Below are positions 3,688 through 57,923 of a stretch of DNA of 64,000 nucleotides, in pieces (position 1 is the first letter of the stretch; each line of letters opens with the position of its first letter). The stretch is from Pseudovirgaria hyperparasitica (taxonomy: Eukaryota): the NCBI GenBank assembly GCA_010093815.1, contig ML996567.1, one strand, 5' to 3'. A program made the position numbers and the translations under genes. The notes below the pieces were generated by a model. It worked only from the letters and a program-made list of their open reading frames with translations. It was not told the DNA's origin and did not search any database.

Positions 3688-4050
3688 TGGTTGCATGATC
3701 CCGAGTCCCCTCTATAGACCTCTGGACTACTATATGCATAGGGTATACATAGATAATAATTTCACCATGAGAATGACCTGGTTGACATTCACTTTCTTGA
3801 TATCGTGACTAACTCGTTCTGACTAGCACTGTTTAATCCCTTGGCAAAGCACGTTCCCACTAACCTGGCACGTCATCTTCATTGGTGTCGCTAATTAATA
3901 ATACCTTGCAGCAAAGCATTGACGACCAAACCACTGGCACGATTACCGAGAACGGCTCATAATACGACCGACAGTGCTTTGTCCTCATTGGGGCCGCATC
4001 TTGTCATTGGGCTCTATCAATCCGCTTGTGGGTGAAAGACACTGTTTATA

Positions 4051-5234: not shown

Positions 5235-6209
5235 GCGCAGTAAGCATGGTGGTAAAATTGATTAAATGCATTTGCAGCTTGCTTGTAGCATTACGATAGT
5301 ATATCATGATCTGCAGACATTAAGAAGTATCCTATCATTTCCAATGCAGGACGCAGTTCCAAAAAACTCGCGACTCCGCCTGCCGCCCTACAACAGGCCG
5401 CGCGCAACGATGGTACTATGCTTGGAGGACAGATAGATAGACTAGATAAATGATAGAGCAAGCAAATAACATGAGAGAACTTCACGGGCGCGTTTCCCTT
5501 GCAGTGGCACTGCACACAAAATCATTGAGCACGCGAAGCCAAATATAGTAAAGAAAGACACATGGCATTTTCCATATCGGTGAAATAAAAATCCCATGTG
5601 CATCGAATCCAGCAGGATGGAGAGACTGAGACATCGGATGCCTTAATTTTAAAAAAGGCGGGTCTATCGGTCTCGTGCACTGTGTAACATACTGTGTGTA
5701 AGAATAAAATACAGTTAGTGAGATTTCTTCCCGGTTTCAGTCAGGAGGTGCAGTATGTTGTGAAATATATTTTGGTTACATGCATTTTTCATGTGGAGTG
5801 CCACGATTTACAGAACTCATTTCTTGCCTTTTACCAGAAGTGACCTTGAGTCGGGCACCAAACTCCACTCCCTCAATCTTTGGAACACCCCAGGTTCGAT
5901 CCTCGACCACTACATTTTGTATTTTCTATCCAGTGCTTCTACATACATCTTACGAGCATCAGAGGCTCATCTTTAATTATATTTTTACTATACACGCTAT
6001 ACGTATATTTTCACCTACTAAATATATTCAGATCGCTCATCAATATATTATTTTCTGTTTGATAATATACTTACAACCTTGAAGTGAACGTCGTGCTTGT
6101 CTGCCCCGCCAAGGGTCATCTGAAGCTCTAAAACCTTTCCCAAGGTACCGGGACGCAAATATATTCTTTCTGTTACAACGACACACGACCTCCGCCGCCC
6201 TTTAGAAAC

Positions 6210-7090
6210 ATGGCTTCTCCAGCTACGATGTAGGGCTGCTGCATCATCTGTGTTACTTGAGAATGCTAATTCGCACGGCAGAAGGGGCAAGGAAGCCCCA
6301 ACTAACGCACGCGGCATTCCGTACGCACCGTTCGTCGACAAGGTCGAAGACTACGTGACGTCGCGCGCCGAGGTCGAAGGCACGCTGAAGAGCTTCCAGG
6401 AGATGATATCGTATGTCGCGCCAATCAATACCTTCATCCTTCCCTCCCGCTCTCCTACCTGATGACACTCGATTGCTGTCTCATCACATCACATCGTCAG
6501 ACCCTAATCGGCCCACCCCCCAGTTAACCCCAAAGCCAGCAAATACCAATTCATGGAAGTAAACCAACAACGGCGCGCCTCAGGCCTCAAGGTCAAAATA
6601 CCCGACATCCAAAAGACACTCGACGTCGTGCGCTTCCTCTCCTCGCGCGCCACCAAGAACATCACCGCCCCACTAGAAACAACCTTTGAGCTCAACGACA
6701 CCCTCTTCGCAAAGGCCATCGTGCCGCCCACGGACGAGGTATATCTCTGGCTGGGCGCAAACGTCATGCTCGCGTATCCCATCCGCGAGGCGGAGGAGCT
6801 GCTGGCGGATAAGCTGCGGGTTGCAAAGGAGAGCTTGGCGAATTGTGATGAGGATCAGGATTTTCTCAGGGAGCAGATTACGGTGAGTACGCATGGGGAG
6901 ATTCGTGTGTGTGTGCCTGGGACGGGACTGGGTGAATGAATGCTGATGTGGATATACTCTGGTACTACAGACCCTTGAAGTCGCGACAGCACGAGTGTAC
7001 AACTGGGACGTCGCGCAACGGCGAAAGGAACGCAGCAGTGAGGCCGAGGGCGCCACGGGCGGCAAAGAAGGAGGAGACTCGAAGGGCTGA
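6210..7090 (+). CDS. PAC10: Prefoldin subunit 3 (PAC10/VBP1 family)
   Basis: Spliced product MASPATIRGKEAPTNARGIPYAPFVDKVEDY..FQEMISKYQFME..FELNDTLFAKA..VYLWLGANVMLAYP..FLREQITTLEVATARVYNWDV. Three GT-AG introns; stop TGA 7088-7090. Confidence 0.93.
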
Positions 7091-8064
7091 AGAATGAGAA
7101 CACAAAGAAAATAAGAAGAGCGAGATCTGTCTTGAGATCACCTTTTCTGTGGTTTGGGCCAAATTGCGCTCCGAGATATATTTGGATGCCGCGAGAAGAG
7201 TGCCTCCCCCCCCCCGGCAAATAGGGGAAAATGAAGCGATGTGTAGACATGTATCCATTTAGCTCGGCAGATCCTGTGGACGAGAGACCCATCAGGGGCG
7301 TTGACAAGACTGAAGACTGCGAATGCGAATGAATGCTACTGACACACGCGGTGTGCGACAAATACTTAGCCCGTTGTTGAATATGAGCATCATATGAGCT
7401 ATATCTGTTTATCGGTTATCGCGGGATTGAGAGTTGAACACAGTGATCGGTACACAAGAGTGAGAACATTACGAGTTTGATCATGTATTTCTGCTTTTAG
7501 CATGCAACTCTGCCCCCATAAGTCCGCACGTACTACGTTCAGCTATGAAACCCAGATTTCTCCAACAGTCTTATTCCTTTCGAGTACTTCTAGCATACTA
7601 ATGAAACATATGTTACGGTAAAAGTTGTTTTTTAACATTCCAGTCAGCGTCTTTTCTCGAACTTCTGGTTATTTGGTGTAGCTATATAGGATTGTAGTCT
7701 TAATTCATTCCCTCAATGAAGGCTCTACATTGTTTATCTATGAATGTTTACCACTTACTGTATATCATAGCATTCTCACTAAAGTCTTGTGGCGTTTCTA
7801 CGCAGTGTACCCAAACAACCCTGCGGAGTCTTAGTTTACAGTTCTAGTGTGTATTATACAGGTACTGAAGAAGTACCAAAAGCGCTGTATACACAACGTG
7901 CTGCTACTAGTACATATGTATAATTGACCTATAGAAGTACAATAGTTTGGGGATAAGACTGTCGTAACTCAGGTGAGTATACCTAATTTTGCTGTCTCCT
8001 GCTCTGCCTCGGAACAGGATCATCATCCATCATGTTATCACTAAGGGTCCACATTTGGCATCCT

Positions 8065-9320
8065 TTATCCCGTTTGCTCCACGGATTTCCCCGTCAGGGG
8101 CAGTTGCAGGCCGGCCGCTGGTGCAAAGGTATACTCATTTCTCTTAGCAGCCTCGAGTCGTGCCTGCCGTCCAGATTCAGCTGCTCGGCCCAACACACCC
8201 GCAATGACTTGAACACAACGTAAACTGGAAATGGATTAGCAAGGTATGAATCAAGCTCATGAATGTCTACTGACCTGTCATCGTTTGCAGGGATCGGATA
8301 GGTGACCTTTGTAGGATCTGCATTTGTGTCGATGATTCCGATAGTTGGGATGGGCTCCATAGCGCACTCGTGGAGGAGCACTGCATTCTCTATTGGGTTG
8401 AGGCACACAACGAGATCAGGCTTCAAGACAGCCCGCTCCGACGTGAGGTCGTCGAAACCTGGTACTTCTTGATCGTGCTCATCCACAACTTTTATTTCAC
8501 AATGGCCTAGAAGCTGTTGTCCATTGGTGATACTTCCAGGTATCCATCGCTCGAAAATATGGCAGCCCCCCGCGAGTTCGGCAGCTTTGACCACGCATCG
8601 CTCTTGTCCACCTCTTGTCCCAACGAATAGAATCAGACCACCACGGCGAGCGGTCTCTTCTACAACCCTGGCTGCTCGCCTAAGATGTGCGACAATGACA
8701 TCTAACGATATTATATGTACACCTTGTCGGATTCCGAATATGTAGCGCGAATTCATGGGATTCCAATTGGACGTTGAGTGACCGATATGGGCCTCCGAGG
8801 CGAGTAGAAGCTCGAGCGTGACATCAGAAAGTCGTGGCGGATTCGAGATGAGCGTATGGGGTTGGTAGTGAGGAGCTTGGGTCGCGCCGATTTTCGAGAA
8901 TTCCTGTTCTACAACGTCTTAGCATGGTAGAAGTTCTAGGCATGATGGCCATGAAGGACTGACTTGTTCTTAAATAATTATCAAACTGTTGTCGTACTAG
9001 AGCGTGTTGAGCGTCGTTGAAAAGGGCCGCGTCGGCAGTCGATGGAGGTAACGGGCGATCCAGGTGGCTATTTGCTTCCAGCTCCAATGCCTTGACACGA
9101 GTGTGGGACTCGGTGAGAAGGCTCTGCAGCTCTTCCGTGGTATGTTGGACAGGCTCAGTAGTCTCTGCTACGATTGTACTTTGAGCTCTCCAGTTTGTTC
9201 GAGTAGACCTCGCGTCTGGCAGCGCCCTCCGACCTGCATCTCGACTGATTAGACCAATACTCTTAAATGAATGGGATTCGCAAGCATACCCGCTCGTAAC
9301 AAACATCGCCGCAGTATCAT
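8065..9320 (-). CDS. MRP4: Mitochondrial 37S ribosomal protein S2 (uS2m)
   Basis: Presequence MILRRCLLRAG. After splicing three introns: LELLLASEAHIGH..WNPMNSRYIFGIRQGVHII..ILFVGTR..RWIPGSITN..IPTIGIIDTNADP..YPIPANDDSLRCV, the uS2 signature. Confidence 0.92.
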
Positions 9321-9618
9321 TGCGCTGTGTGCGTTGTGGTGCGTTTTTAGGCCGGTCAAGACGATATCTAAGAATCGATGTTATTTTCGGTGGTTAGTAA
9401 TTGTAAAAAATGTCACGGTCCAAGCCTAAGCCCAAGATCGGCAGCAACCCGAAGACATGGGATTACAGCGAATCCCCTTCCCCACTGCAAACCGGGGCCT
9501 CAGATCACCTCCATAGCTCTAAACAACCAGCAGCATTCACTGCGTATGCTCAACATCGAGTTCTGGACAATACTGCGCCTACATTCTCCTCCCCCTCTCG
9601 CCCTCCCGACGTGTCCTA

Positions 9619-9744
9619 ATGTCATCGTTGCATGACGCAAATCGACCGGTCGACTCCTCGAGGACAGCTAGAACGAGCTCGTCTGCCCACAACGCCGCCG
9701 ATACCATTACTGTGCGAATGTACGGCCCCCTGTGCCCACGGTAA
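9619..9744 (+). other. Candidate upstream ORF (41 aa) in the wc-1 leader
   Basis: ATG 9619 to TAA 9744, in frame with and ending 45 nt before the wc-1 ATG at 9790. Its ATG overlaps the TAA of ORF 9410-9619 (TAATG). Confidence 0.3.
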
Positions 9745-9789
9745 CCTGATCTCCGTACACGTTCAATCGTCGCGGAGATTCGGTGGACC

Positions 9790-12700
9790 ATGGCCAACAT
9801 GAATGACTATTTCCAACGTCAGTACTCGACCGACGCAAGGGCCAACATGATGGAGATGATGGAGTCGGATGGGTCTAGCCAGCAAGGCATGGGCGTGCCG
9901 CAGAATCTGAACGATATTGTGGAGAATAATTCGAATAATATCAGGAGAAGGAGTATGCCGGTTCACTACGCCAGTAATCAAGCACGCATGAACGACCCAG
10001 CAATGAGGAGGATATCCATGATGGACTATAATACTTCTTCGCCTACCTCCCTGGAAGGCTTTCAATTCGATCCGCAGTTACCTCTAGATGAAATGATGCG
10101 CAACACTTCATTCCCTGAGACATCGACAAATCCTCAACTCCGAAGGCAGACTTCAACAAACGCCTTGGTAAATGGGCCTACGTTTTCGGGCCAGGGCTCC
10201 CCTTACACATCGATGGCCATGGGTGGATCCACGTACGCATCGCCCATACATGCAAACACAAACCTGGATATGGAAATCGCAAACACTTTTGGACCCACAA
10301 GTCTGTCGATGGCCATGGATATGACGGATCCTTCACTGAACAATCTCATGAATGGAGACGCTAATTCCATGATGTTTGGTACAGATCAGTTTGGATCTCC
10401 TGTACTAAATTCACCCATGGCTCCAGACTTTTCGTCTCTCCAAGCAAATCCCCAACAACGCCCACCACCGAGTGTTCCAACCTTGCGAAGCCAACCAAGT
10501 CAAGACGGAAAGTCACCATATCCAAAGTCGGAAGCCCAGAGCAGCGCAACGCCAGATTTCCGTGCATCACGACTCGGCAGCCAGGAACAGAGTACGCGTC
10601 ACAATTCAACCCAAGGTAGTCTCTCGGCGTCAAACCAAGGCTCTTCCAGCAATGTACCACAGGTCGCGCAATTCCGGAACGATACCTCTTCGACCCATCA
10701 GAACAATACCGCAACCAGTCAGATCATCAAGGTTCCCTGGACTGCGCCTGAAGGTATGATACATCGTGAGATTTGGATTGCATTCATGCTCATATCAGAT
10801 TAGGGGGCTATCCTTCCACAATGGGCAATGCGCGACCCCACATGGAGTCACAATATAAGAACGCATATTCCTCAACGGGATTTGACATGTTAGGTGTCTT
10901 GGTATGTTGTTGACGTCTTTCGATTCGTTGGCACAATATGTATTGACCGCCGTCTGCAGATGCGAGTTGCAACACGACCGAATCCCGAAATCAACATCGG
11001 CTCCGTCGATCTTTCCTGTGCCTTTGTGGTCTGCGATGCTGAACAAGATGACAACCCAATCGTGTACTGCTCCGATAACTTTGAGCGCTTAACGGGCTAC
11101 AATAAGCACGAAATCCTCGGACGAAATTGTCGCTTCCTGCAGTCACCTGACGGCCGAGTCGAGCCTGGGATCAAGCGAAAGTATGTTGATGACGACTCTG
11201 TCCTGTACTTGAAGAACATGATCACGACAAGGAAGGAAGCCCAAATCAGTCTCATAAACTATCGTCGAGGTGGACAGCCCTTTATGAACTTGCTGACTAT
11301 GATCCCCATCACATGGGACGGAAATAGTACGAAATTCTTCGTAGGTTTTCAGGTCGACCTTGTAGAGCAGCCTAGTTCAGTGACGAATAAGAATCCGGGT
11401 ATGCGAGCTTCGAATTTTGATTCCTCTATGAAGATAGCTGACCTGCTTAGATGGCACATACAAAATCAACTATCAGCGGGGGCTGACCATGCCGAGATAC
11501 ATCGCCCCTGACCAAAGATCACAGTTGGACTTAGGCCAAACGATCACACGCGACGAAGTCTCGAATGTTCTGAGTACCTTTGGAACGCAAGGCGATTCCG
11601 AGTTTGCTAAACGGATTTGGGATAAGATTCTTCTCGAAAATACTGATGACGTGGTACACGTGCTGTCTCTGAAAGGCCTATTTCTCTACCTGTCTCCGTC
11701 CAGTCGAAAGATTCTAGAGTACGAAGCGAATGAGCTGGTTGGGACAGCACTATCTTCTGTCTGTCATCCGAGTGACATCGTACCCGTTACCAGAGAGTTG
11801 AAAGACACCTCGAGTGGGGTCTCGGTCAATGTTGTATTCCGGATACGACGAAAACATAGCGGCTACATGTGGTTCGAAGGCCACGGATCGCTTCATACCG
11901 AACAAGGTAAAGGTCGGAAATGCATCATTCTCGTTGGACGTGAGCGGCCAGTCTATACTCTGAGCAAGAGCGATATAATGGAATCCGGAGGGATCGGCGA
12001 TAACGAGTTGTGGACGAAGATGTCAACTTCTGGAATGTTCTTGTTTGTGTCTTCAAATGTTAGACAACTCCTTGACCGCCAGCCAGAAGAGCTTGTTGGA
12101 ACGAGTATTCAGCTTCTGATGCGCGGGGATTCGAAGAAAGAGTTTGGCCGTATTCTTTCCATCGTCCGGACGGGAAAAAAGGCATCGGTCAAGCACGAAA
12201 TGATGAATAAGCGGGGACAGATTCTCCAGGCATTCACGACTGTATACCCGGGTGACGCTATTGAAGGACAGAAACCGACGTTTCTAGTAGCCCAGACTCG
12301 TATGCTCAAGTTTTCCCGGGGAAGCACGCAACGTCAATTACTATTAGCTAAAGTGGATGCGACATCCCACCATTCTGGATCCTATGCTCTTGGTACAAGC
12401 CAAGGCACAGGTAATGATACACCTGCATCGGGTGTATCTGCGAGCCAATTTATTGCCACGAACGAGTCAGCCGCGACACATGCTGGTAAGGACGGCCTCA
12501 AACTAGGACATCAAGACGCCAAATTAGCATCCGACGAGAATGTCTTTGATGAGCTGAAGACGACGCGAAGTACAAGTTGGCAGTACGAGCTCAGGCAGAT
12601 GGAGAAGCGTAACAGACTACTGGCTGAAGAAGTACAGAGCTTACTGGCAGCTAAGAAGAAGCGTAAGAGGAGAAAGGGCGCAGGGCAACTGAAGAAAGAT

Positions 12701-13108
12701 TGCGCAAACTGCCATACGAGAGTGACGCCGGAATGGCGGCGCGGACCCAGTGGCAATCGTGATTTGTGCAATAGCTGCGGTTTGCGGTGGGCAAAACAAG
12801 TGAGTTTTGATGGAAGCAGATTGTCAAAGATTGCAGCTAACGATGCCACCTTACAGAACGGTCGGGTTTCACCTCGAACTTCATCTCAACACTCTGCATC
12901 AGCCCAAAGCGACAAAGGCAGCAAAGGCAGCAAGACCAGCGCATCTCCGCGTGGCCATATCATTGGCAAGCCAGATTCGCAGACGTCGCCAAAGCAAGTG
13001 AGTGCTGACAATCACAATGCTAAGGTTGCTAGGATGGAGGTGGCAGCCTCCCAAGGCCTATCTGGCGGCGTGCCTCCGAAGATTGACGAGGGTGTCGAGC
13101 CAGAGTGA
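9790..13108 (+). CDS. wc-1: White collar-1 blue-light photoreceptor / GATA transcription factor
   Basis: Low-complexity N-terminus; LOV domain with [12 protein letters not shown] and [19 protein letters not shown] finger [30 protein letters not shown]. Introns ~10754-10803, 10882-10939, 11399-11450, 12800-12856. Confidence 0.97.
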
Positions 13109-14102
13109 TGATAGACGGAATGACAACCATCTATGGCTATTTATTCAACATCTTCTGTAATTTGTTAGGGCTCCGGCTTGGTCGCAACGATACCCATCGT
13201 ATTCTGGATAGAGGAGTAGGTCTGGTGTGCAGAAGCTTTATTGAGTACTGACCACTCTGGTGTATTCCCGTTAATGTAAATTCAGTATTGGGCGATTTGG
13301 CGTTGCATTTGGCGTTTCTGTGGGATCGTCTAGCGCAATTTCTGGGACGTGTCTGGTTAGATTTGTACGTATGGTGGTGTGATGATAGCATCGGACGACC
13401 TCAGGTTCCGCTGAGCGGCGAAGGATTGATGAGATGAGCGACGCATATATTGTTTTGTTGTAGGTACGCGAGTACATGCGAAAGGCACACATCTGCTTGA
13501 CACAAAACATACAGAGTACACAAAGTGCACAAATGCAAAGAAGAAACAGTCGACATGGTGGAGGCGTCGTGGGTTTCTGCATAGGTAATTTTAGAGACTC
13601 GAGATATCGTAGCTCAGCTAGCGAGCACGGACCCCCATTGCGGGAATCCAACGGTGTGGCGCCAGGGGGCAGAAACCTACTGCTATCGAGCGCCAGGAGA
13701 GAGAGTGAAGCTCGCTCGGGCACTATTCTGAGCCCTGGGTCCCCAGCCGCGGCTTGGGTAGAGATTCATTGGCCAATTGTCAGTTGGGGTTCTATCAGGT
13801 TTTTTGATGCCTTCATGGGCTCGTTCAGTACTTTTACTTCGGCCTCGCTGCTCATGAGAGAATGAATGGGACTGTCCTGTTGCTTGCGCATGAAACACCA
13901 ATTCTTCCCTGCCACTTTCCACCCCTGCTTTTTATAGCATTGCCTAAATCCTTCTGAGCCTTTCCGGGTCGACACGCGGCCCCAATACGAAACAATCGCT
14001 TGCGAGTAGCAAAACACACTGACTGCTGGACGTGTCGTCTCTTGTCGCGCGACACGCTTTCCTTACAAGTCCGAGCACAAGAAGAGCGAGCACAGCTGGA
14101 GA

Positions 14103-43986: not shown

Positions 43987-45879
43987 ACATTTTATCTTTT
44001 TGAAGTTGCAGTACCATTTGGCATGATTCATGAGGGGCGCATATACGGGCATACTGTTTAGACACGGTCTGTTTAGGCATTGGGTGGGGGCTGGCGGACT
44101 GGGAAACATTGTATGATCGTTTAGCGCTGCATGTAAACAAAACGAAGCATTTTTCTAATGAGCATTCTTAAACGCACAGTGTTGTCAAGTTTCGTCCACT
44201 CACAGGGTGAGTGTAATCTTCATCAACATCATGATTACATTCTCCTCCACCCTCCTCCACACAGCTCTGCTTTGAGTCTCCAGTCTTTCCCAGACGCAAT
44301 CGCTCTAGACGCCTCATCAAAACACTACTGTGCATAGCCTGAATAACGGCCCCTGTCTAATCGTCGATGTCCTCCACACACACCCCGTCCACAGCCCCAC
44401 CACTACCCCAGGCGTGCTTCAAAATACGCAATCCCTGAACGTACCGAGGCCGCACGCTAGTCGTCGCCACTCCATGTGAAAAAAGCACAAGATACAGTAT
44501 CACAAGCATGCATTTGTTTTAATCCTTTCGCCTAGAGAAGATCGATCTTGATCTGAAGACAACAGATAGATGTGTTCTTTGTTCGATTCGCGGCTTCCTT
44601 TTCATATATAATTATGTCGGTTTCTTGTTTGTACTACCCCCAGCTCCCTCCTCCTTCCCCTTCTGAAGTCTAATTCATTCATTCATGGGCTTGGTGGGTA
44701 TGGGCTGTATGGGAAGGGTAGGAAAGTGAAGATTGTCTTGTGCACTTGGCATCTCTTGAAAGAGATTCAATATCTACGTGCATGCATTCGGTGATTGCAT
44801 CCACATCTACATGCACGCAAAATTACCCAGCCACTATCTAGTAGGTACTTGGCATTTTGCGCAGCCATAAACACTTGGCGCGGACCCTGTGCCTTCATCC
44901 GATGATGTGGATGGGGATTAGGAGTGGTAGGTACTGGTGGTGTAGTTAGTATTGGACGTGAGATACCCAGAGACAGACGCCACACACATAGACATAGGGT
45001 ATCGCATCCGACTCCCCTACCCTGCGACCCTCCCTGCGTCATCTGTATGAGGTGTCTGTGGCTGTGGCTGTGACGCAGGAGGAGCTGGTAACTATTAGAC
45101 TTCTGTTATGGATTAGTACTAGAAGTGAGTGGGACTGCGTTCTCCACCAGCAGACAGATCTAAGCCCCCTTAGAAACCGTCCAGCTTTGTGAAAGATGAC
45201 AACGGCCTTTGACACATATGGCTAGCTGCAGGTCTGAAGATCATTTAGAGACACATGGGTGTAGCACGAGAACGAGTACAAAGTGCCCTAAGTCGTTGTC
45301 TCGTCGTGCGATGAGTTGATTTTCCTCGCCATATTTAGCTACCATACTACGATACATACGTTCGCGAGAGAAAGGGCCTGCATCCTGCCGGTCGGACCGA
45401 CATGGGAGGATAATACTGTGAAGTTTCCCCAGCTTTTCGAAAGTTTGGATGTGGAGGTGGCGCCCGCCGGGATCTGCACCGGGGACATATGATGTGGGGA
45501 TAAGAGCAGGAGCAGGGGCATGTGAAAAGGTTAGTGGTGTTGTTGAGATAATCAAGAAAATGTTTAGTTTCGTCTGCGATATGATTGGATGGGTCGTTGG
45601 GAATTACTACGTAGTACTGTACTACAATCTGTGTCAATCATAGACCTTTGCCTTGTATCGTTGGTTAGCATGTGGGTCTGGGCTTGAATGATGTTTCATA
45701 TGCGTTCATGATGGATGGGTAGGCATATGGCTTTGTACAGGTGGGCTTGATCTGGGGCATGTATATGTCAGGGTCTAGGAGGTCCCAGAGGCGGAATGGC
45801 TGTGACACTTCACTACCATTACCATTGCATCAAAGACGTCTGGTCAGTCGTGATATATTAATCGTCCTCTCAGGTCTCA

Positions 45880-45975
45880 ATCCGTTTGTCCATAGTTACA
45901 TGGGAAAGCTTGGCGCCCGATGCACGTCTGTGCCACCAACACGCGTTTTTATATGTAATTAACATTTTACGGCAT
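45880..45975 (+). repeat. Left terminal inverted repeat
   Basis: ATCCGTTTGTCCATAGTTACATGGGAAAGCTTGGCGCCCGATGCACGTCTGTGCCACCAACACGCGTTTTTATATGTAATTAACATTTTACGGCAT is the reverse complement of 57331-57426 except one C/T. Confidence 0.96.
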
Positions 45976-46079
45976 TATCGCCGCACCACACGTATATAGA
46001 GTCTATAACTATATAATATAGTATATAAGAGTTAGTATATATAATATTTAGTATTTTTAACTTACTAACGTGTGTATAT

Positions 46080-47180
46080 ATAGTACCCTAGGGCGTTATC
46101 TATCCTGATTCCGTATATAGATAAATCGACTTCCTCCTATAACACGATATACCTATTAATAAGATTATCGCTATTACTAAAGTTAGTAAGAATATAGTAT
46201 ATAGGACGAGGTTTAACCTTAAGACGTACGGATAGAGAAATAAACCGTAGTTAACGCGTTATGGTCCACCTCGTTAACTAAGTAATTATATAATATAATA
46301 ACTACTTAAGAGACTACTTTGTAAGGGCTAGCTATACCTTAATAAGATAGCTAGATAGATATACGAAGAGTTTAATCTTACTATATCTAAATAGCTTCTA
46401 TCTAAAGAGTTATCCAAGCGAGGGTAGAATTATAAGCTATTAAAATATATTAGTAGTACGTGCTTAGAGATAGCGCGTACTTTATACCTTAAGGATATTA
46501 CGGAGCTACTAGTAGACTTATATATCTTCTTAGATAAGGTTATTTTTAATAAGAAAATTAGATAGAGGCGTCGAGCTAGAGTACTAAAAGGATAGACTCT
46601 AACTAAGATTAGTACTCTTAATTAAGGATCTATATATAGCGTATATAGAGCTATTACGGCTAATAGTTTTATCTACTATTAGATAAAGGAAGGTTATTTC
46701 TTAACGGATAAGTTCTATACCTAGCTATAAGTATACCTATTACCTACTCTCGAGGTAAAATACCCCGGGTATATAATAATAATTATTATAGATAATCTCG
46801 TACTTTATACGAACTAATAGATTAAGCTACTTATACTTAGCGCTAGCTATATTATATAGTATATACTACCGTACTTACCTAACTTTAATTCTATTAAGCT
46901 TATATAGGCGGTAATAAAGGTATAGATTCGTAGGTAGTATATCTAGATATATTAGTAATCTTAAACTTTTAAGGACTTTCTCTATATCGTATTTATATAT
47001 AGCTATACTAATTAGTAGGCTCTACGCTTCTTTAAATATACTATAGATAGGTACTATATTAATAAGATGCTCCGGTAGAAGGTAGTCGCTAATTTAGAGA
47101 GGTTTAGATAAGGTAGAGATAGTAGAGAGGTTACTAAAGTTAAGGAGATTAGGAGACTTTTTTATAAACTTATTAAGTAA
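46080..47180 (+). pseudogene. IS630/Tc1 DD34E transposase, RIP-mutated
   Basis: One frame from ATA(ATG) 46080: IFLD[E] (GAT 46533), [M]DN (GAT 46791), [P]PY[S]P[D]FN[P]I[E] (AAG for GAG at 46896), with exactly 34 codons between the second D and the E. Stops are TAA/TAG explicable by C>T/G>A. End coordinate approximate. Confidence 0.9.
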
Positions 47181-47339
47181 CTTACTCGTTACTAACTCGC
47201 CGATAAGTAAGTCGCTTAGCTAGCTAGTAATAGTCTATATATATATCCGTTTTAGGTACTATTCGTCGAGTATATAGCCTTAATATATAAATATATACTC
47301 CTAAATACACTCTAAGAAATACTATACTATCCCTATCTA

Positions 47340-48210
47340 AATACTAGTTATACTAGTTATAGTAAACGCCTAGAGCAAGGACGCCGCCTTACTTATCTTA
47401 AGTTACTTCTTATACTTATAAAGGTATAGACGTGCGTCTAGTAGGATACTAAGTAGAATACCTACTATCTTCGCGGCTTTATAATAAGTAGTTCTAGACT
47501 AAGTTATCTCCTTAATATAGCGGTAAGTATAGTAGTTATTATCTATATATAGTCTTAATTCGTGTATTCTAGCCCTCGTCTTATCGTAAGTCTCTATCTC
47601 CTTACGCTATTTAAGAGCTAATAGTACTATATCCGCCTAGTAACGCCCTAGTTATACTAGACTACTAAAGGTTTCTATAACTCGTGTCTAAGGGGGTATT
47701 TTATAACGAGTCTTACGAGTTAGCGAATAATTTAAACTATAAGTAGATAGAGGACGAGGTTAAGGTTAAGGTTAAGGAAACGTAGGTATCTATATAGGTA
47801 TTATAGGATTAAATCTATAATACTATAATTCTATCTAACGAAGTAGTTAAGTATATACGAGCTTATCTTTATTATCTTAATAATATCTTACCGCCGCCTC
47901 CTTACGCTTAATTATTATCTATCTTATCTACTTATCTTAAAGCCTCGTATTCCGCTCCTTATAATCTAACTTAGCCTCCTTATATCGTAATCTCTTTATT
48001 TTAAGGCGCTCGAGTATAGAAGTAGTACTTCCGTTAACGGCGGTTAACGAGGTACTAGTTCTACTACTAGTTCGAGACTTCCTTAGGCACGGTCGAGCGA
48101 TAATCTTATAGAATAAGTCTATTAACGGCTTATCCTTAGTTACACCTTAAATACTATTAATAATATTATTAGCCTATAGCTCTAAGATAGTCTTATCTAC
48201 CTTATAGTAG
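47340..48210 (-). pseudogene. Transposon ORF2, 3' half (coiled coil, QP-rich linker, C-terminal domain)
   Basis: Frame continues from 56254-57139 once the retrotransposon and one AGTAG copy are removed (..CTC TAC TAT AAG GTA GAT AAG..). End approximate. Confidence 0.7.
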
Positions 48211-48448
48211 TGTAAAGAGTAAAGACGTAGGATAGTAGTCTAACAGTTTATAGAGAGACATAGGAATGTATTTATAGAGTAATCTCACTCTTATACGAGG
48301 TTAATTCCTAACGAGTAGGAATTGGTTTATATAGTCCACTTATATAGTGACCTTGCTTAACTTAGCTAACTTAACCTAGCTCTGGCCACTACGTGGCTAT
48401 ATAGATTAGAATAGTCTATATAGATCTATTATGGTTCCCGTCCTAATA
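48211..48448 (-). repeat. 3' LTR
   Basis: TGTAAAGAG...CCGTCCTAATA. Colinear with 56016-56253; ~20 differences by manual alignment, all transitions. Confidence 0.95.
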
Positions 48449-48465
48449 ATATCCTTCTTCTTTTT
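48449..48465 (-). other. Polypurine tract
   Basis: Minus strand AAAAAGAAGAAGGATAT directly abutting the 3' LTR. Confidence 0.8.
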
Positions 48466-48927
48466 ATACTTCGCCCTAAAGTACTTAAGTATATATAATT
48501 CTAAGTCTCTATAATCTATCGTGTACCTATACATCTATAACTAAGTTTCTATAACGTTATAACTATCCTTAATATAGGTGAACTTAAGATTCTAGTTCAC
48601 TTTTATTAGTTTATACACGCGCTTATCCCTTACTTTATAGCTACTACCTAGGACACGTAATCGCTACTTTAGTCAAGTATATATTTAGCTTCGCTCGCCT
48701 TTAATTTTATTCTCTAGTATATCTACTTCGCTCTTAAGGTAAGTTATTAATTTATATACTATCTTCCCTAGTTTAGGTTTAGAAGGGTCTATAGTAGTCT
48801 ATTCTTATTAGAACCGGTCCTATATAACCTATTCGCGTTATTACGGTTACTGATTTAGCTTTATTAATCGCCGTTAAGGGTAGACGAATATTCCTTCCTT
48901 AGATCTCTAGCTAACGTATATATATAG

Positions 48928-50240
48928 ATGTCTAATACTAGTCCTATCTCTAAGCCTACCTCCTCCTCTTATAAGACTCGCTCTAAAGGTATCGCCTCCT
49001 CCCCGGCCACACCAGCTAAGAAGCCTACCTATTACGGTGGCACGAAGGCGCGCTCTAAGTTAGAGAAGAGAGTAGCTAGGGCTACTACTACTACTACCTC
49101 TACTACTAATATAGCCACTAGTTACTCTAATCTAGGTAATCCTAGTACTAAACTTATAGATAAAGTGGTCGTAGGTTCCCCTCTCGCTCTAAAGCGTACG
49201 CCGCCTACTCTACCTCCTCTAGAGGATAAAGAAGATCTCGTCATAGACGATAATCGCGAGCCCTTACGCTCACCCACGCCGCCGCCTCGCCGCTCTTCCT
49301 TCCGGTCTAATATAGACTAATTTAGTCGCTCTAGGTCCTTTTAGGACCTTAATATTCGCTCTAAACCCTAGCCTACTAATAATAAGGCCTAGGTCGCCGA
49401 GGATACTAAATGTAGTCGCGGTTTACGCCATAGGAAAACGGCGAACTACGGTTCGATATACTATAAGTATATTAAGGGCTATACGGCCGGCTCTAAATAT
49501 CTCTTTCGCTCTAACTCTAGTATTAGCTACTACTCTACTAACCGCGACGGGCCTATACGCCCTATCTTTACTCTATCTACCCGCTACTACCGCTATACTA
49601 TAACTAGTAAGACTTATCTATAGGTGAGTATAATAGGCTATCTTAATCTAGTATAATCTAAAGTGGTCCGCGCTAATATATTCTTAGGTTCCTATATATA
49701 TATAAGATATATATAACGACCTTCGCGTCCGCGAGACCCTCGGGGGTCCTTATAGCCGCCTACCTACTATATAGAGGGAGTTTAGGGAGCGCTATAAGCT
49801 CTTCCTAGAGGTTATTAAAGTATAAGTTATGAGCACGTTAATTATTTTTAACATCTATTAATTTTTCTAGCCGCCGCGAGATCCCTAGCGCCTAGGCTAT
49901 CTATTCTAGGGAGTCTATTCTAGCTATAGAGGCCGTAGAGAGAATTCGCTCTATCCCCCCCCGTCCATCTCGCGCTACTAATAGATCTTATAAGAGGTCT
50001 ACTATTTCTCCCTCTAAGTCGCCTCGTAAGAGGGTATATATTCCCTTCTAGATTATTCTAGATCATGTTAGCTAACTTTAGACCTAGTCGCTACGCTCCG
50101 GCGCTTAAGGCTCTTCCCTCTAGACTCTAACGGATCGGGTTATTACTCTAGAGGCTAAGGTTATCGTCCTCCGCCGCCATGTTATATAGTTAGAGAGGAC
50201 TACGCTAGAGGTTAGGACGGATAATAAGATAGAGAAGTAG
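48928..50240 (+). pseudogene. Antisense, intron-containing accessory gene of the retrotransposon (Cys-cluster + basic + coiled-coil protein)
   Basis: ATG 48928; frame continues past RIP-type stops to 49623. Introns 49624-49687 (GTGAGT..GCTAAT..TAG), ~49820-49870, 50034-~50081 (GTAT[G]T..GCTAAC..TAG). Confidence 0.7.
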
Positions 50241-50699
50241 CTCTATGGTTCTAGCTCTATATGTTGGCTCTATACCTGGCTCTATATATTCTAGATCTAC
50301 TATAGGTGGTGCGCGCCGGCTCTATTTACCTAGCTTTTATCCGTTTTAGTCCTTTTTAGACCGTTTAGATACCCGTCGGCCAGTTTCTAGTAATTTAATT
50401 CTTAACTTAATGATATTATGTGTGCGCTCGCTTAGCTTATGACTATCGGTTTCTATATTCTAATTTTCCTTGAGTTACCTAAGTGTAGGCACCGCATATA
50501 AATTAGTTTATCTCTATGAATTCTATTAGAGTACCCGAACTAGTAGTCTAGTAGTTATCGGTTTAGATACTCTAACCTTTTATATTTCGTATTAAGAGTT
50601 TAATTCTATGGTAGGGTACCTTTTTTTAGGTTCTTGGTCCTATATTTTTCTCGTGTATAATAGTCCGTATTAGTCCATTCTAGACTCTTCTATATTATT

Positions 50700-53600
50700 C
50701 TATTATGGTATGTCGCGTCGCGTTCCTAAAATGGTTATTTACGCTTTCTTCGCGTCTAGTAACTATATAACGCTTAAATTATAGGGCTACTATATAGAGT
50801 TTTCCTAGTGCGCGTCTGGATTTCCTAGTTTGGTACTTCGTTCTCTACGGTATTCTTCTTCTTTTTATAATAACCGCGACGTCGCTATACTTATATTAAT
50901 AATACGCTATTCTATATCTTTTGCTTATACGCAGCTATTATAGAACTTAAGATATATACCGCTAGTTCCTAGGTGTCCTCGTCCTTAGTATAGTCCTTCT
51001 AACGGATTCTATATTTCTAAACACCGTCTTTATCAATCCTATATTCGATAATATGGTCCACTTCGAACACGTCTAGTCTATCTTAGGGTATAATAGAGTG
51101 TAACTACACGTTCGTGCGGCTATATATATTAGGTCGAAATCTTTCGAGTAGTAAGACGTAGAATACCTTATAGATTCTTATATCGCTTCCTAAGTTAAGC
51201 TCGTAGGCTCTTATACTAATATAACGTTTAATTCGGAAGGGACCAGCTATTTTATAATCGAGCTTCTTATTTACTCGTAATATTCGTATATTATAGACGT
51301 TAAGAAGGACCTTATCGCCCTCCTTATACGTCTAATCCTTAGTTAACCTATTATAGTACTTCGTATACGAGTCGTTTACTTATTGGATTATAGTATAATA
51401 GTTACGTGCGGTTTCGAAGATTTTAATCGCTAATTCCTAAGCGTGGACGTTCACGTCTATTATTCGATTAAATTAGACCGTCTAAGGCTTAAAACCTATC
51501 CTTAGACTATATCTAAGGTTCGCCTAGAAAGGTATAATACCTATCGTGCTATAACGACTATTATTATATACGAACTCTACTATACTTAGTAGAGAGGCCT
51601 AGTTATTCTACTCGAAATTATAGAATACGCGTAGGTAGGCCTTGAGCGTCTAGTTCTATCGCTCTATCTAGCTATCCGTCTAAGGATAAAATACTATAGA
51701 TATATTCCTATTTATACTTACTATTTTATAGAATAACGTCTAGAATTTAGACGTGAAGGTACTTCCTCGGTCTATAACGATCCTTTTTAGTATACCATAG
51801 ACCTTAATAATCTCGTTCTAGAATACCTACGCTAGTTCTTTAGATGTAATCGTCTTCCATACCGGGATGTATCTAGATATCTTTATAAGTCTATCCACGA
51901 TAATAAGAATAGAATTATAACTTATTCTAAGCATCTCGCTTAGAGATAAGTTAACTATAAAGTCTATAGTAACGTCTTCCTATATAAAGAGGAGGGCTGA
52001 AAGAGGCTGTAAATTCCTATATAGCTTATGCCTAGGGGCCTTCGTTCTTTAATAAATTAGATAAGTAGCTATCTATTCTTTAATATACTTAGATATATCT
52101 TTCTAAAAATAGTACTAACGAATTAAGCTTAGGGTACGTATATACCTAAAGTGTCCTACTAGGTTAGCGTTATAGTATTAGCTAACTATATTAAATCGCG
52201 CGTTACCTATCGGTATATAGTACTTTCTATTATAGTAAAGTAAGCTATCCACGAAGGTCTACTTATAGTCTACTTTAGTCCGTAATAACCTATCTTACTA
52301 TATTTTACGTAACTTTAAAACTATTAGGTCTATCTTCTATAGATCCACGATTAACTAGGCGAGGTTAATTAGATATTTATACTGGGCATTATCGCCCTTC
52401 CCGACAGCGCTAATAAACGGCCTACTAGGAACTTCGGTACCGCGTCTTTGGTTACCGGCTTCGGTCTTAGAGATTCGATTACCGGTATCGATATTAGCAT
52501 CTCGCTAATTACCTAATAACTTAAAATCCAACCTCGTCCTTAAGAGTTAGGCCTATAGCTACTCTAGGACCCTATAGCTACTATAATCCTAGGCGCCTTC
52601 TTTATAGTTAGGTCTTCTTAATATTCTATTAGCTAGGTTTATACTTCTAGGTCGATAGTAGATTATAAAGTAAAAGTTTATAAGCTACTTAGCCTATTAG
52701 ACCTATCGACGGTTTAAAACTATCGTGCTTATAAACCCCTTTAAGTTATAGTAATTAGTTAGTAACTCGACGTTATATATAGTACCTTTAAGATAATATC
52801 ACTACTATTTAAATGACTCTACTATTACTAGTAGCTCTTAGTTATAGATAGTATATCTAGTCTTAATATTAACTATTTTGCGTAAGAAGAACGTAACTAG
52901 ATACTATTAGACCTTTTTAGACTTAGTTAGTCTAGGCTAGAAGAGAATACCTAAGATTATAAATCCTAACGCGTCGGTTTTAACATGGATAGATTTAGTT
53001 AGGTCGAAGTACACTAGTAATAGGGTAGTTATAAATGCCTCTTTGATTTTCTCGAAGGAGGCCCTTTCGCCTTCTAATAATTCTATAGGCTGCGATTTAA
53101 TATTACGCTATTTCTATCTACCATGGACCGTAATAGATAAATCTATAGTAGTAGTACACGTGTTAAGCGGTGCTACTAGCCGGGAGAAATGCTTAACGAA
53201 TTTTCGGTAGTAATTAGTAAATCTAATAAAGACACGTATGTCTCGAACTAATTTTAGTTTAGGCTAGTCCACGATAGTAGCGACCCTATCCCTTTCTATA
53301 GTTATACCTTAATTAGTAATAACGAAGCTAAGGAAGTTAACGTGGTTCTAGTAGAACTTATATTTAGATAGCTTAATATATAGCTTATGTTTTTCTAGCC
53401 TATCTAGGACTACGCGTACGTACTAGATGTGTTCTTCTTCGTTATTAGAGAAGATAAGGATGTCATTAAGGTATACGATGCACATCGTATCAAGTAGGCC
53501 TACTAGCGCGTTATTAATGTACGCTTAGAAGGTTCCTAGCGCGTTAGTTAGTCTAAAAGGGACTACTATATACTCGAAGTGTCTATAACGGGTCCTAAAC

Positions 53601-54600
53601 GCCGTTTTCTACTTATCGCCCTTCTTAATATATAGGCGGTAGTAGGCGTTACGTAGATCGAGCTTAGTAAAGATCTTCACACACCCTAGTCTATTAATAG
53701 ACTCGGAGATAAGAGGTAGTAGGTAACAATTCTTTCACATAATATTATTTAGGCTATAGTAGTCAATACATAGACGGAGACTCCTATCCTTCTTCTTTAT
53801 AAAGAGGATTAGAGCTCCGGCTAGGGATATACTAGGCCTAATCTATTCTCGCGTAAGGTTCTTTTCGATATATTCTCGGAGGACCTATAGCTCGGGTTCT
53901 AATAGAGGGTAGATGGGTCTATATAGGGGTTATTAACCGTCTTTAAGGTTAATAGTAAGGTTAGTAGGTTAGTATTAAGGTAATTCGGACGAGTCGATTA
54001 CTAACGCGATATATTAGTATATTTTATACTAATATAGTAGGTTTTCGTCTACTTTAATACTAAGCTCTCTATTTTAAGTAAGTAAGAGAACGTAGATAGC
54101 GGAGATTATCTTTTTGTAGTCCTTCTAGAATTATTCGTCGTCGACTAGCTATACTAGGTTCTATTATAGTAGGTACATGCGCTAGCTAGCTGTTTTCTAG
54201 ATGAAGTCTAGTTTCGGGTTATATTTTTCGAGCTACGGTATACCGAGAATCATATTAAAGGGACTATCTACCACGATAAAGGTTAAGTAGTAGGGTTTCC
54301 ACTTCCCCCCGCTATCCTAGATACTATATTTAATAGTATAGATACCCTACGATTTAATAGGACCATTAATACTATAGAAGGTAGCATCTATTAGTGCTTA
54401 AATATCGACGTTAAGTTCTCGTGCTTGTTAAGTCGATATAACGTTAGTAGCTAAACCGCTATCGAGCATTACGGTCTAATATTATCTATAAGAGACCTTG
54501 ATGGGCCTAGTCTATAGTTTAATATACTAGTTAGCTAGTTATCTCTCTATTTTAGTTATACCTATAAGTCGCGAGGGTTCCTTATAGGCAGTTAGTTTTT
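50700..54600 (-). pseudogene. pol polyprotein relic (protease, RT, RNase H, integrase, chromodomain)
   Basis: VMLDSG ~54460; CIVYL[D]DILIFS ~53465; [E]TDA[S]GF ~52970; F[H]P[Q]TD[G][Q].ER ~51670; IAGPFRI ~51240; VFEVDHIIE..KYRIR[W]KDY..EDT[W]E ~51000. 3' end approximate. Confidence 0.92.
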
Positions 54601-55974
54601 TATATTATATACCGGGTAGTTAGGCGCGATGTATCCCGGCTACTAATACTTATAGTATATAACTAACTTAGTATCTATATTAGTATTTAGTGGTTTCCCT
54701 AAGCGGTACTTAGGTGCTATATGGCCTATCCTACTATAGGTATAGTAGGTAACTTTAGGTCGTTTATACGAGTCGTTTCTCGCGTCTTAATATATCGACT
54801 AGTAGAAAGATCCGCGGTACGGGCCTCGTCTTCTCGAGTTCGTAGAGTAGTAGCGCCCACGAGGTATTCCGCGCGATCTATTACTAAACCGGTCCTCTTT
54901 AGATGATTTTATATCGGATTAGATTAATAGGGATAGTCGTGCGCCTATACGACGTTAGTTATTCATTATACGCTAATATTATTCTACGAGATTCGCGAGT
55001 ACCTAAAGGTTAGTAGGGATAGACGTTATAAGGTTAATATATTTCTTTACGCTTAGGTTAAGGGACCTTTTAAAGTCGTCGTATTATTAAACTATATAAT
55101 CTTCCTTAGCTTCTCTCTAAAGAGGTCGGAGGTATTCGAGAAGTTATAACGGGGATTATCTCTCTCGCTATTAAGTCTTAAAGATATAGCTCTAAGCCTA
55201 TTCGCGTCGCTCGGCTCTATCGCCGAAGTATTAAAGAAGGAATTCAGTGAACGTGTCCTAGTTATACGTATCCTTAGGGTGTTTAATTCGATGTACCATC
55301 TAACGTTTAGATGGTGTTAGGTCTAGGTAGTTCTATATAAACCTAATCTTATTACTATCGTTCGTGAATAGGTGGAAGAATCGGCTATACTAGTAAGCCT
55401 ATTTATAAAAGCTCCTCCTAGTTTTACCGTTAAAGTAAGGTAGTTTCTTAGACTAAGGTAACTAGGATAGTAATAGACTTAGTTAGACTATTTCGGCTTA
55501 AGTTAATCCATATTAGTATAGATTAGTTACTACTAGTACTAAAGCGCGTAGTGCGGCTTTAAGTCTAGCGGTTCGTCCTCACGCTTTATTAAGTTTATAA
55601 AGTTATTACTTAAGCTAAGCCTAATACTACCTCTCCGTGTATAGCTTAGTATATACGTCGTTATAAGGCGTGGTTAACGTTAGTTAGTTCTAACGAATTA
55701 ATTTATTAACGTTAATAGGGTCTGGTCTTATAGTAAGGATGGGTCTAGTATAGTATAAACTAGACCGCGATAGAGTATAATGGACTCCTTCCTTATTATC
55801 TAGGTAATCTTCTACGGTTATATAGAATACCGTACTAGTTATTAGTATGATAGTCTATAGGGTATACTTATTAGTAGAGGTGGTCGTAGGGAGACTATTC
55901 TCTTCATTTAGATTTAGAGAGAGTCTCTCGTGTAAGGTAGTACTACGGGTATTATAGCGCGTAGTAGGAGCTAT
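54592..55974 (-). pseudogene. gag relic with CCHC zinc knuckle
   Basis: ATA(ATG) 55974 in frame with TAA 54594-54592; [C]YK[C][Q][Q]PG[H]IAP.[C]P near 54615-54660. Confidence 0.8.
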
Positions 55975-56015
55975 CTCTATAAGCTACTATCGTACTATAT
56001 AGAGAGGAATTAAAA

Positions 56016-56253
56016 TATAAAGAGTAAAGACGTAGGATAGTAGTCTAATAGTTTATAGAGAGATATAGGAATGTATTTATAGAGTAATCTTACTCTTATA
56101 CGAGGTTAATTCCTAACGAGTAGGAATCGGTTTATGCGGTCTACTTATATAGTAACCTCGCTTAACTTAGCTAACTCAACCTAGCTCTAGCCACTACGTG
56201 GCTACATGGATTAGAATGGTCTATATAGGTCCGTTATAGTTCCCGTCCTAATA
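56016..56253 (-). repeat. 5' LTR
   Basis: TATAAAGAG...CCGTCCTAATA, RIP'd version of a TG..CA LTR; contains a minus-strand TATATAAG box. Confidence 0.95.
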
Positions 56254-57139
56254 AGTAGAGTATTCTATTAGATAATATAATCTTATAGTACTAACCTTAG
56301 TAGTTTATATACGTCGCCTTACTATACTAGAGCTTACTCTAAATATTATTAATAATGACTTCTCGGTCACGGCCTCGCTATCTTCGCTTCTCCTATAATT
56401 TAAATAGCTATTTTAAGCGTCCCTTAAGGTTTGGATCTATAGATAACGATACTAGACTAGTAGAAACTATACTAGTAAGTAGTAATAGCGTAGGAGACTT
56501 CGGATTAGATACTATAGCCTTCTTACGTCCTAGTAGCTAATAAGACTTATAGATAATAGTATTCTTAAAGGTAAGGAATATAGCCTCTAGTAGATCCTTT
56601 CTTACTAGGCTATAGATCTTATTAAGGAAGGTAAGAAGCTTATTCTAGTTATCTAGACTCTAGTCTAGAAGTATTAACTATTTTCTAGTACGACTAGATA
56701 TTCCGAGCTTTATAGTAAAGCCTTAAGTCTTAAATAGCTAGTTATTAGTACTAAGAGCCTTATTAATTAACTACTAAATCTCCTCCTTATATAACTCCTT
56801 CTTAAACTTATACTAGGCTTCTATCTTTAGTAATATAGCCTTAATAATCTTTCTAAAACCATCTACTCTAAGTTACTAATTTATATAGATAGACTATATT
56901 ATCTTATTAAGAGCCGCGTTATTATCCTATAGATTCTTCTTCTCCTCCTCCTTAACTATATCTCTATAAACTAAAGTAGAGTTATTAGTATTATTAGGTA
57001 TATTACCTAGTAAGGCTAGAGGATTACTTAATAAGGGTACGTTAGAGAGTACTAGCGGTATATTTTTATGCCTTACCGCTATCTTCGTAGCCCTTAATAC
57101 CTTATCTATACTATACTAGAGCGCCTTCGACGTAGATAT
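56254..57139 (-). pseudogene. Transposon ORF2, 5' half (ends in Cys-rich motif at the insertion point)
   Basis: ATA(ATG) 57139 is in frame (807 nt) with codons CTC TAG TAT AGT AAG GCG ACG TAT ATA AAC at 56332, which back-correct to L-Q-C-S-K-A-T-C-x-N. All stops are RIP-type. Confidence 0.7.
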
Positions 57140-57330
57140 ATATAGCTATAGTCTAGAAGGTGGTAGTAGAGGTTCTATTAAGTTATTCTATCCGAATTAA
57201 ATACCTTTACGCTACTTAGGAGATATAATAGATAGTGTAAAATAGTTAAAAAAATACTAATATATGGCTAATATCATATAATACTAATATATAATAGGTA
57301 TTTTAATAGGTATATGAGTATTCGTCGACG

Positions 57331-57426
57331 ATGCCGTAAAATATTAATTACATATAAAAACGCGTGTTGGTGGCACAGACGTGCATCGGGCGCCAAGCTT
57401 TCCCATGTAACTATGGACAAACGGAT
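57331..57426 (-). repeat. Right terminal inverted repeat
   Basis: Reverse complement of 45880-45975. Confidence 0.96.
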
Positions 57427-57923
57427 CGCCCATCATGACGTTGTTGGCATGTCGCAGTGCCACTCCTGCTACCCAGCACTGATTGGCTGGTCAGCATGAC
57501 CCGTGCCATCCTCACGCCCTCTCGATCCGAGAAGAGCGCTCAAGCACAAGCCGGAGATACTGCTCGTCACACCCTCGCCTAGCTATCCAGACAAGACATG
57601 TTACCATGTCTGTCGTCGGCGACAGGCAGCAGAGTGTGGACGCTTCATCTCTCGCGTGGTATACTGAGCTTCAAGAAATGGGCTTGTCTTGTACTCCACC
57701 TTGGCCCCGCGAGTGCATACGAAAAAAGTGAAAACTACCAGAGAGAAAGAGACAACATCTAGCCAGCACGCGTTGCGACCATGCCGATAGACCGTAATAC
57801 GTTGCTGCTTGCTATGCACGGACAAGATCCGCCCTGAAGTATAAGGGGTATATTATACGAGCTCTTAGAGACAACATTTTCCAACCATGTAGACATACAG
57901 GGCCCTTCTTACTTACTACAAGA

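Follow-up and report, generated by a model that had tools for sequence, protein, structure and literature searches.

A 64,000-nucleotide (nt) stretch of contig ML996567.1 from the fungus Pseudovirgaria hyperparasitica (GenBank assembly GCA_010093815.1), referred to here as the window, contains a Tc1-like DNA transposon in which a long minus-strand open reading frame (ORF), termed ORF2, lies opposite the transposase gene. With a probability of roughly 0.5, ORF2 is considered to be a genuine second gene of a multi-copy Tc1-family (DDE_3, DD34E-like) transposon, resident in an ascomycete proficient in repeat-induced point mutation (RIP), and to act as an accessory protein. The components of this reading differ in firmness: it is very probable that ORF2 is a real gene, and almost as probable that it is part of the mobile unit; that its product would be needed for transposition, or would modulate it, is argued by analogy with other elements and stands at an even chance or slightly below. 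The copy in the window is itself dead, its Gln and Trp codons having been converted to stops by RIP and codon 323 of ORF2 being split by a Ty3/gypsy retrotransposon.

Tc1/mariner elements are the textbook example of transposons that require a transposase alone, and as a rule they encode nothing else. This self-sufficiency accounts for their spread across kingdoms and for their use as gene-transfer tools.

The ORF2 reading frame

ORF2 is divided by the retrotransposon into two halves, the second of which adjoins a spacer.

56259..57226, minus strand: ORF2 N-terminal half, 322 codons plus two bases of the junction codon; start ATA (from ATG) at 57226-57224
47340..48210, minus strand: ORF2 C-terminal half, 290 codons plus one base of the junction codon
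47131..47339, no strand: spacer between the convergent genes, with the ORF2 3' end

An earlier note on this DNA had described a minus-strand frame inside the terminal inverted repeats (TIRs), opposite the transposase and running through the insertion point, and this description holds: the frame is in phase across the insert, the junction codon being formed by positions 56260 and 56259 and the first base of the target site duplication (TSD; position 56258), after which the frame continues at 48209. Between 57226 and 47340 it spans 613 codons, 45 of which are stops (32 TAG, 13 TAA and no TGA). The codons that remain include none for Gln, Trp or Met, one for Cys, two for His and 39 for Tyr; as RIP converts CAR and TGG to stops, ATG to ATA, and both TGY and CAY to TAY, this is the composition expected of an open frame under saturating RIP. 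The claim that the frame contains only RIP-type stops was accurate, in that every one is TAA or TAG, but constitutes weak evidence, as the same is true of every frame: TG and CA dinucleotides have nearly gone from the element, so that TAA and TAG are the only stops to be found in any of them. Stops make up 7.3% of the ORF2 frame, compared with 5.8% of the pol frame of the gypsy insert, a certain gene in the same RIP state. Stop counts per frame were dropped as a coding test, since they barely differ between frames under saturating RIP.

The start of ORF2 had been placed at 57139, but alignment with a homologous protein, P0004 (described below), moves it 87 nt further out. In this alignment the initial Met of P0004 pairs with the ATA at 57226-57224 and an Ile with the ATA at 57139, so that the start is put at about 57226, some 96 nt inside the right TIR; from there the gene runs towards the transposase, tail to tail. 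At the other end, candidate stops extend from about 47405 to 47322 and the 3' end is not fixable, the length being about 590-615 codons. The ORF2 and transposase frames are antisense to each other in register, with the result that both appear coding-like over the 3' end of the transposase gene (el 901-1500, corresponding to window positions 46780-47379, where el denotes positions in the 3,499 base pair (bp) element) and that neither gene's end can be located from codon statistics.

The N-terminus of the predicted product is basic and rich in Pro and gives way to an acidic run, features that P0004 has as well. Its C-terminal half comprises a Ser/Thr-rich stretch, a Lys/Arg/Glu-rich helix with 12 Lys and Arg among residues 391-420, a (QP)n repeat and a Tyr-dense tail. 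Both a (QP)n linker and a charged helical stretch after the junction, the latter described as a coiled coil, had been anticipated from the letters and were recovered here. The repeat reads XPXPXP, with X for stops, at residues 469-474, with 3.5 copies of AGGTTA detected by Tandem Repeats Finder (TRF) at 47757-47777, and differs in length between copies of the element.

Evidence that ORF2 is coding

A phmmer search of 1,835,955,588 representative proteins with the N-terminal half of ORF2, stops being read as X, returned a single match (E=2.1e-6). This was P0004, a 138-amino-acid (aa) hypothetical protein of Pseudovirgaria hyperparasitica, a Dothideomycete, according to its record at the National Center for Biotechnology Information; by BLASTP the same comparison gave 1e-11. 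The alignment covers the first ~122 residues of ORF2 and continues ungapped for 29 codons upstream of 57139. Identical residues occupy 49 of the 119 aligned columns. When columns were instead scored as RIP-compatible, meaning that C>T or G>A changes alone suffice to turn some codon for the P0004 residue into that of the window, the count was 90 of 119 (up to 76%), against 21.1 ± 3.9, with a maximum of 35, in 2000 column shuffles. Six of the eight stops in the aligned stretch lie over Q, W or R.

Two codon models were applied to the element. The first was trained on gypsy pol only; as a control, it ranked the transposase frame best in four consecutive 300-nt intervals (el 301-1050), and it ranked the ORF2 frame best in 10 of the 12 intervals over el 1351-3300. 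The second, for which the training set was pol, the DDE part and codons 1-122 of ORF2, was scored on the untrained remainder, where it gave +27.0 bits for ORF2 residues 123-323 against -21.1 for the next frame, and +7.1 bits for the C-terminal half, none of the other five frames exceeding -34.3 there. Similarly, the codon positions of ORF2 are biased, the first being A-rich and T-poor and the third G/T-rich and A-poor, which mirrors the transposase frame on the opposite strand. On sequence grounds, four independent lines, namely homology, the two codon models and codon-position composition, indicate that ORF2 is coding; the earlier assertion that a second, convergent gene is real finds its backing in the homology with P0004, its RIP-compatibility and the codon models.

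Among host proteomes ORF2 appears to have essentially no relatives, the representatives searched (1.84 billion) yielding one match. Word-index protein searches with the C-terminal half (P0002) and with P0004 found no relatives, and there was no match in metagenome scans, made with the N-terminal alignment and with a TIR-tip pattern, or in a scan of viral contigs.

Copies of the element

Logan contigs from four sequencing runs under the same species label (X1-X4) were aligned to positions 45500-48210 at 80% likeness. X1 and X2 are DNA-like runs, and the kind of X3 and X4 is unrecorded; one GT..AG joint and patchy cover hint that the latter pair may be transcript assemblies. The aligned pieces numbered 853 in X1 and 498 in X2, and loose contig ends with unlike flanks pile up exactly at 45880. 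The summed contig depth, which is a sign of many copies and not a copy number, was 279 in the flank versus 5,655-13,305 (X1) and 1,299-10,558 (X2) in the internal bins of the element up to 48210. In the TIR bin it reached 39,757 (X1) and 20,751 (X2), around four times the interior, from which it follows that solo ends or short TIR-only derivatives may exist. In these contigs the region that encodes the C-terminal half of ORF2 is repeated to the same extent as the transposase part. The Tc1-like element is present in many copies, the aligned half of ORF2 included, and the expectation that ORF2 would be more than a one-copy oddity is thus borne out for that half.

Nearly all differences between copies are transitions: contigs from X1 differ from the window by A>G at 63 places, T>C at 54, C>T at 59 and G>A at 58, compared with 13 places with transversions. 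The RIP indices of the 3,499-bp element are 1.75 (TpA/ApT) and 0.156 ((CpA+TpG)/(ApC+GpT)), and just 28 CA and 31 TG dinucleotides remain in it. These are the properties of a RIP-mutated repeat, and the interior of the element is near-saturated.

Differences in X3 are distributed otherwise, with A>G and T>C at 87 and 68 places versus C>T and G>A at 16 and 12; the excess of A>G and T>C in X3 and X4 implies that these contigs derive from much less RIPped copies. Contigs of the two runs cover 47314-47415 and 47567-48119 of ORF2 and begin at around 47310-47315. One X3 contig, 1,602 nt in length, begins at about 47310 and covers the C-terminal half, its remaining 873 letters falling off the aligned stretch. 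It is compatible with an RNA of the size of ORF2 that ends shortly beyond the last candidate stop, although continuity with the N-terminal half is not shown.

Three length differences between copies were recorded within the aligned half of ORF2, each divisible by three. Of these, two are of 6 nt and fall in the QP repeat; the third lies at 47415-47567, where the 151 letters of the window are represented by 76 in one contig of each of the four runs, an in-frame difference of 75 nt, or 25 codons, at which TRF reported no tandem duplication. By contrast, the spacer at 47181-47200 exhibits eight small insertions or deletions in one other copy (six of 1 nt, one of 3 nt and one of 4 nt), and the lengths of some deletions that other copies have in the transposase part are not divisible by three. 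Contigs from X1 and X2 also join 46545/46546 to 47294/47293 on opposite strands, which points to a rearranged (inverted) copy elsewhere in the genome.

The Tc1-like element and its transposase

The boundaries of the element and the position of its other gene are given below.

45880..45983, plus strand: left TIR of the Tc1-like element, a 104-nt inverted repeat, not RIPped
57323..57426, minus strand: right TIR of the Tc1-like element, a 104-nt inverted repeat
45994..47130, both ends approximate, plus strand: RIP-inactivated transposase gene, with a DDE_3 match at ~46524-46934

The G+C content, around 50% across the window, falls to 29-40% at 46000-57200. Excluding an 8,043-bp insert bearing long terminal repeats (LTRs), the element is 3,499 bp in length. 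Its TIR arms, of the kind found in the Tc1 family, are 96% complementary over 104 nt and identical for about 96 nt inward from the tips at 45880 and 57426. They retain a normal G+C content and many CpA and TpG dinucleotides, in an element whose interior is RIP-saturated.

When its 40 stops are read as X, the plus frame beginning at 45984 matches Pfam family DDE_3 with E=1.5e-7, the score of 31.8 bits exceeding the cut-off of 28.6. DDE_3 was the sole transposase-family match in the Pfam search, which returned none to the PIF-type transposase family DDE_Tnp_4. A paired-like N-terminal part was judged to be present by eye, and in a by-eye count, made without a reference alignment, 34 residues separate the second Asp (..IIDN..) from the third acidic position, which is now Lys (AAG) and RIP-compatible with GAG. 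The element is classed as Tc1-like; the same assignment had been made previously, and rests here on the DDE_3 match and the 104-nt TIRs. The gene contains a putative 53-nt intron at 46031-46083, with GT..AG borders and a TACTAAC branch site. A GT..AG joint from 46030 to 46092, with 8 letters between, occurs only in X3 and X4 contigs, and this intron-less joint suggests that transcription and splicing take place at other copies of the element.

The TA duplication typical of the family was not found at the ends of the element. The flanks read ..TCTCA / ATCCG.. on the left and ..CGGAT / CGCCC.. on the right, without TA, and the bases immediately outside are CA and CG (45878-45883 and 57423-57428). 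Both repeat tips read AT-CCGTTTG, and the other copies among the Logan contigs share sequence from 45880 onward, AT included. The AT could therefore be a duplicated target, or the TIR could begin with AT and the TSD not be visible.

Possible function of ORF2

The motif on which a functional assignment had been proposed lies in the following stretch.

~56326-56261, minus strand: Tyr-dense 'Cys/His' stretch of ORF2

Two patches of ORF2 are dense in Tyr, at residues 301-330 (7 Tyr) and, equally so, at 541-570. The C-x4-C...H motif, one possible reading of the first patch, appears only if Cys or His is chosen for Tyr codons, and because TAY may derive from TAY, TGY or CAY the motif is undecidable in a RIPped copy, an ambiguity that the earlier note had acknowledged. 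Tyr, Cys and His usually sum to ~6.9%, so that only some of the Tyr in ORF2 can represent Cys or His. Comparison with other proteins added little: a sequence search of the PDB with both halves returned chance matches only (E>0.1), and an ESM Atlas search with P0004 gave no feature match, all of its structure rows having template modelling (TM) scores below 0.4. In single-sequence AlphaFold2 models of the halves, the sole modestly confident piece was a long helix at residues 62-89 of the C-terminal half, with a predicted local distance difference test (pLDDT) score of 63-72. A match of ORF2 to DDE_Tnp_Tn3 (E=0.07-0.1), well under the cut-off, was treated as chance.

The scarcity of host relatives, the complete look of ORF2, its start ~96 nt inside the TIR, its retention through amplification and its agreement of up to 76% with P0004 point to a gene of the transposon family rather than a captured host gene. 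Most likely, a gene that a transposon retains serves transposition or its control, and ORF2 would accordingly be an accessory protein specific to this family, with a part in moving the element or in controlling that movement. The long charged helix could allow the protein to pair or multimerise, and it may bring the transposase to the element ends in the nucleus, or hold it there, as the second protein of PIF/Harbinger elements does. A helper role in DNA binding, target selection or anti-silencing, as suggested in the earlier note, is conjectural. It is possible, though rather unlikely, that this is the first two-component fungal Tc1-family transposon, in which the transposase would require ORF2 for nuclear import, TIR binding or the choice of a non-TA target, or ORF2 would blunt the host's genome defence.

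Relation to known transposons

The generalisation that Tc1/mariner elements carry a transposase only stands as a rule but is not absolute. In the part of PMC7325037 consulted, the ciliate TBE and Tec elements, which belong to the Tc1/mariner superfamily, are described as having three ORFs; these include a zinc-finger protein and a small ORF in TBE, and a recombinase in Tec. No fungal Tc1 element with a second gene was found in a literature search that took in parts of PMC7325037, PMC4112212, PMC5751038, PMC3441728 and PMC3562529, most subscription journals and Repbase being outside its scope.

The present element resembles fungal Tc1-family (DD34E, DDE_3) transposons in its long TIRs, DDE_3 transposase and paired-like part, with a putative D..D(34)E spacing counted by eye, and in being multi-copy and RIPped. 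It departs from them in its size of ~3.5 kb, in the lack of a visible TA duplication and in possessing a second, convergent gene of ~600 codons (a frame of ~613 codons), where the family has the transposase gene only. PIF/Harbinger elements likewise have two genes between TIRs, the division of labour between them being only an analogy for that proposed here; however, the transposase in the window is of the DDE_3 type, and the partner protein of PIF/Harbinger is Myb/SANT-like, whereas neither half of ORF2 had a Pfam match to Myb/SANT at E<=1, a weak test given that Trp codons are now X. The ciliate TBE and Tec elements demonstrate that extra genes can accompany a DD34E transposase, but they belong to another kingdom and differ in the genes they carry; no relation between their sequences and ORF2 came to light, none having been tested directly. 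Capture of the Pack-MULE type also leads to non-transposase coding sequence being amplified between TIRs, but the captured sequences are usually fragments with a recognisable host parent, whereas ORF2 has the look of a complete gene and the searches turned up no parent family among hosts.

If a large second gene has been kept through amplification, the single-gene rule would have fungal exceptions and there would be a new accessory protein to characterise. Alternatively, Tc1 elements would be able to transport an entire foreign gene and raise its copy number, a matter of relevance to gene duplication and horizontal transfer in fungi. Should ORF2 be a transposition or anti-defence factor, it would provide a new model for the acquisition of cofactors by the simplest cut-and-paste transposons, and the interest of the system will be clear only if a role in transposition is demonstrated. 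The analysis also represents a worked example of gene recognition in RIP-saturated DNA, through scoring the RIP-compatibility of a homologue and applying a codon model drawn from other RIPped genes.

Alternative explanations for ORF2

A number of observations weigh against ORF2 being a second gene that encodes an accessory protein. The homology consists of one protein only, a 138-aa gene model matching over ~122 residues, the genomic context of which is not visible; residues 94-293 of the N-terminal query had no match in the protein searches, and the C-terminal half had none in a word-index search, which is not exhaustive. Stop density is a poor discriminator, as one more frame of the right part reaches the same count of 28 stops. 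Over 47530-47979, the region of the Lys/Arg/Glu-rich helix and the (QP)n repeat, the codon scores of ORF2 and of a plus-strand frame are practically equal (-1.7 and -1.8 bits), and downstream of 47340 the antisense register makes the codon signal ambiguous. The contig comparison covers ORF2 only to the left of the gypsy insertion, that is, its C-terminal half; the depths within it speak for many copies and nothing finer, and the evidence from insertions and deletions is weak, coming from one contig per run. As regards function, Pfam searches with both halves and with P0004 identified no family, and the AlphaFold2 models, with mean pLDDT of 38.0 and 46.4, are unusable.

An improbable explanation, albeit the strongest of those that compete with an accessory gene, is that ORF2 is a passenger: a host gene, whole or in large part, captured between the TIRs and amplified passively, with no role in transposition. 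Canonical Tc1 elements require the transposase alone, and the element exceeds the size usual for fungal Tc1 elements, about 1.8-1.9 kb, by ~1.6 kb; furthermore, ORF2 lacks a transposon-related Pfam domain, and its sole relative is annotated as an ordinary hypothetical protein. A captured host gene would nevertheless be expected to have a host family, whereas ORF2 had one match among the 1.84 billion representatives and none by word-index, though fungal proteomes were included. The RIP-corrected agreement of up to 76% with P0004, extending over a low-complexity N-terminus, resembles that within a shared mobile family rather than that with a diverged host orthologue, and ORF2 appears complete, with its own start just inside the TIR.

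Distinctly less probable is a composite origin, in which ORF2 came from some other, unrecognised element that inserted into the Tc1-like element and was then mobilised by the Tc1 transposase. Nesting is common in the region, as the gypsy element inside ORF2 attests, ORF2 is an orphan, and the fourfold depth of the TIR bin suggests that the ends also exist apart from the interior. However, no second set of terminal repeats or TSD surrounds ORF2, the only long repeats reported being the LTRs and the TIRs, and, aside from the insignificant DDE_Tnp_Tn3 match, ORF2 has no transposase-, reverse transcriptase (RT)- or recombinase-like match. Least probable of all is that just the first ~120 codons are real and the rest is non-coding sequence, open-looking by chance in RIPped DNA: the end of homology at residue ~122, the short length of P0004, the poor separation of frames by stop counts and the tie at 47530-47979 are set against the untrained remainder favouring the ORF2 frame by 48 and 41 bits, phase being kept over the junction and on either side of the ambiguous stretch, the copy length differences all being multiples of three, and the 1,602-nt X3 contig running from ~47310 over the C-terminal half.

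The nested retrotransposon

The insert that interrupts ORF2 is a retrotransposon.

48211..56253, minus strand: Ty3/gypsy (chromodomain) LTR retrotransposon, RIPped, 8,043 bp, recognised by its LTR pair and Pfam domains

The LTRs, at 48211-48449 and 56016-56253, form a 237-nt direct repeat of 92% identity, the LTR length being 239 nt, and the insert is flanked by the 5-bp TSD AGTAG (48206-48210 / 56254-56258). One minus-strand frame contains, in order, RVT_1 (1.2e-20), RT_RNaseH_2, Integrase_H2C2, SH3_Tf2-1 and Chromo matches. The LTRs, the 5-bp TSD, the RT-RNaseH-integrase order and the chromodomain are those of a Ty3/gypsy element of the chromovirus type. The element is full-length but RIPped, the TG at the start of its right LTR having mutated to TA.

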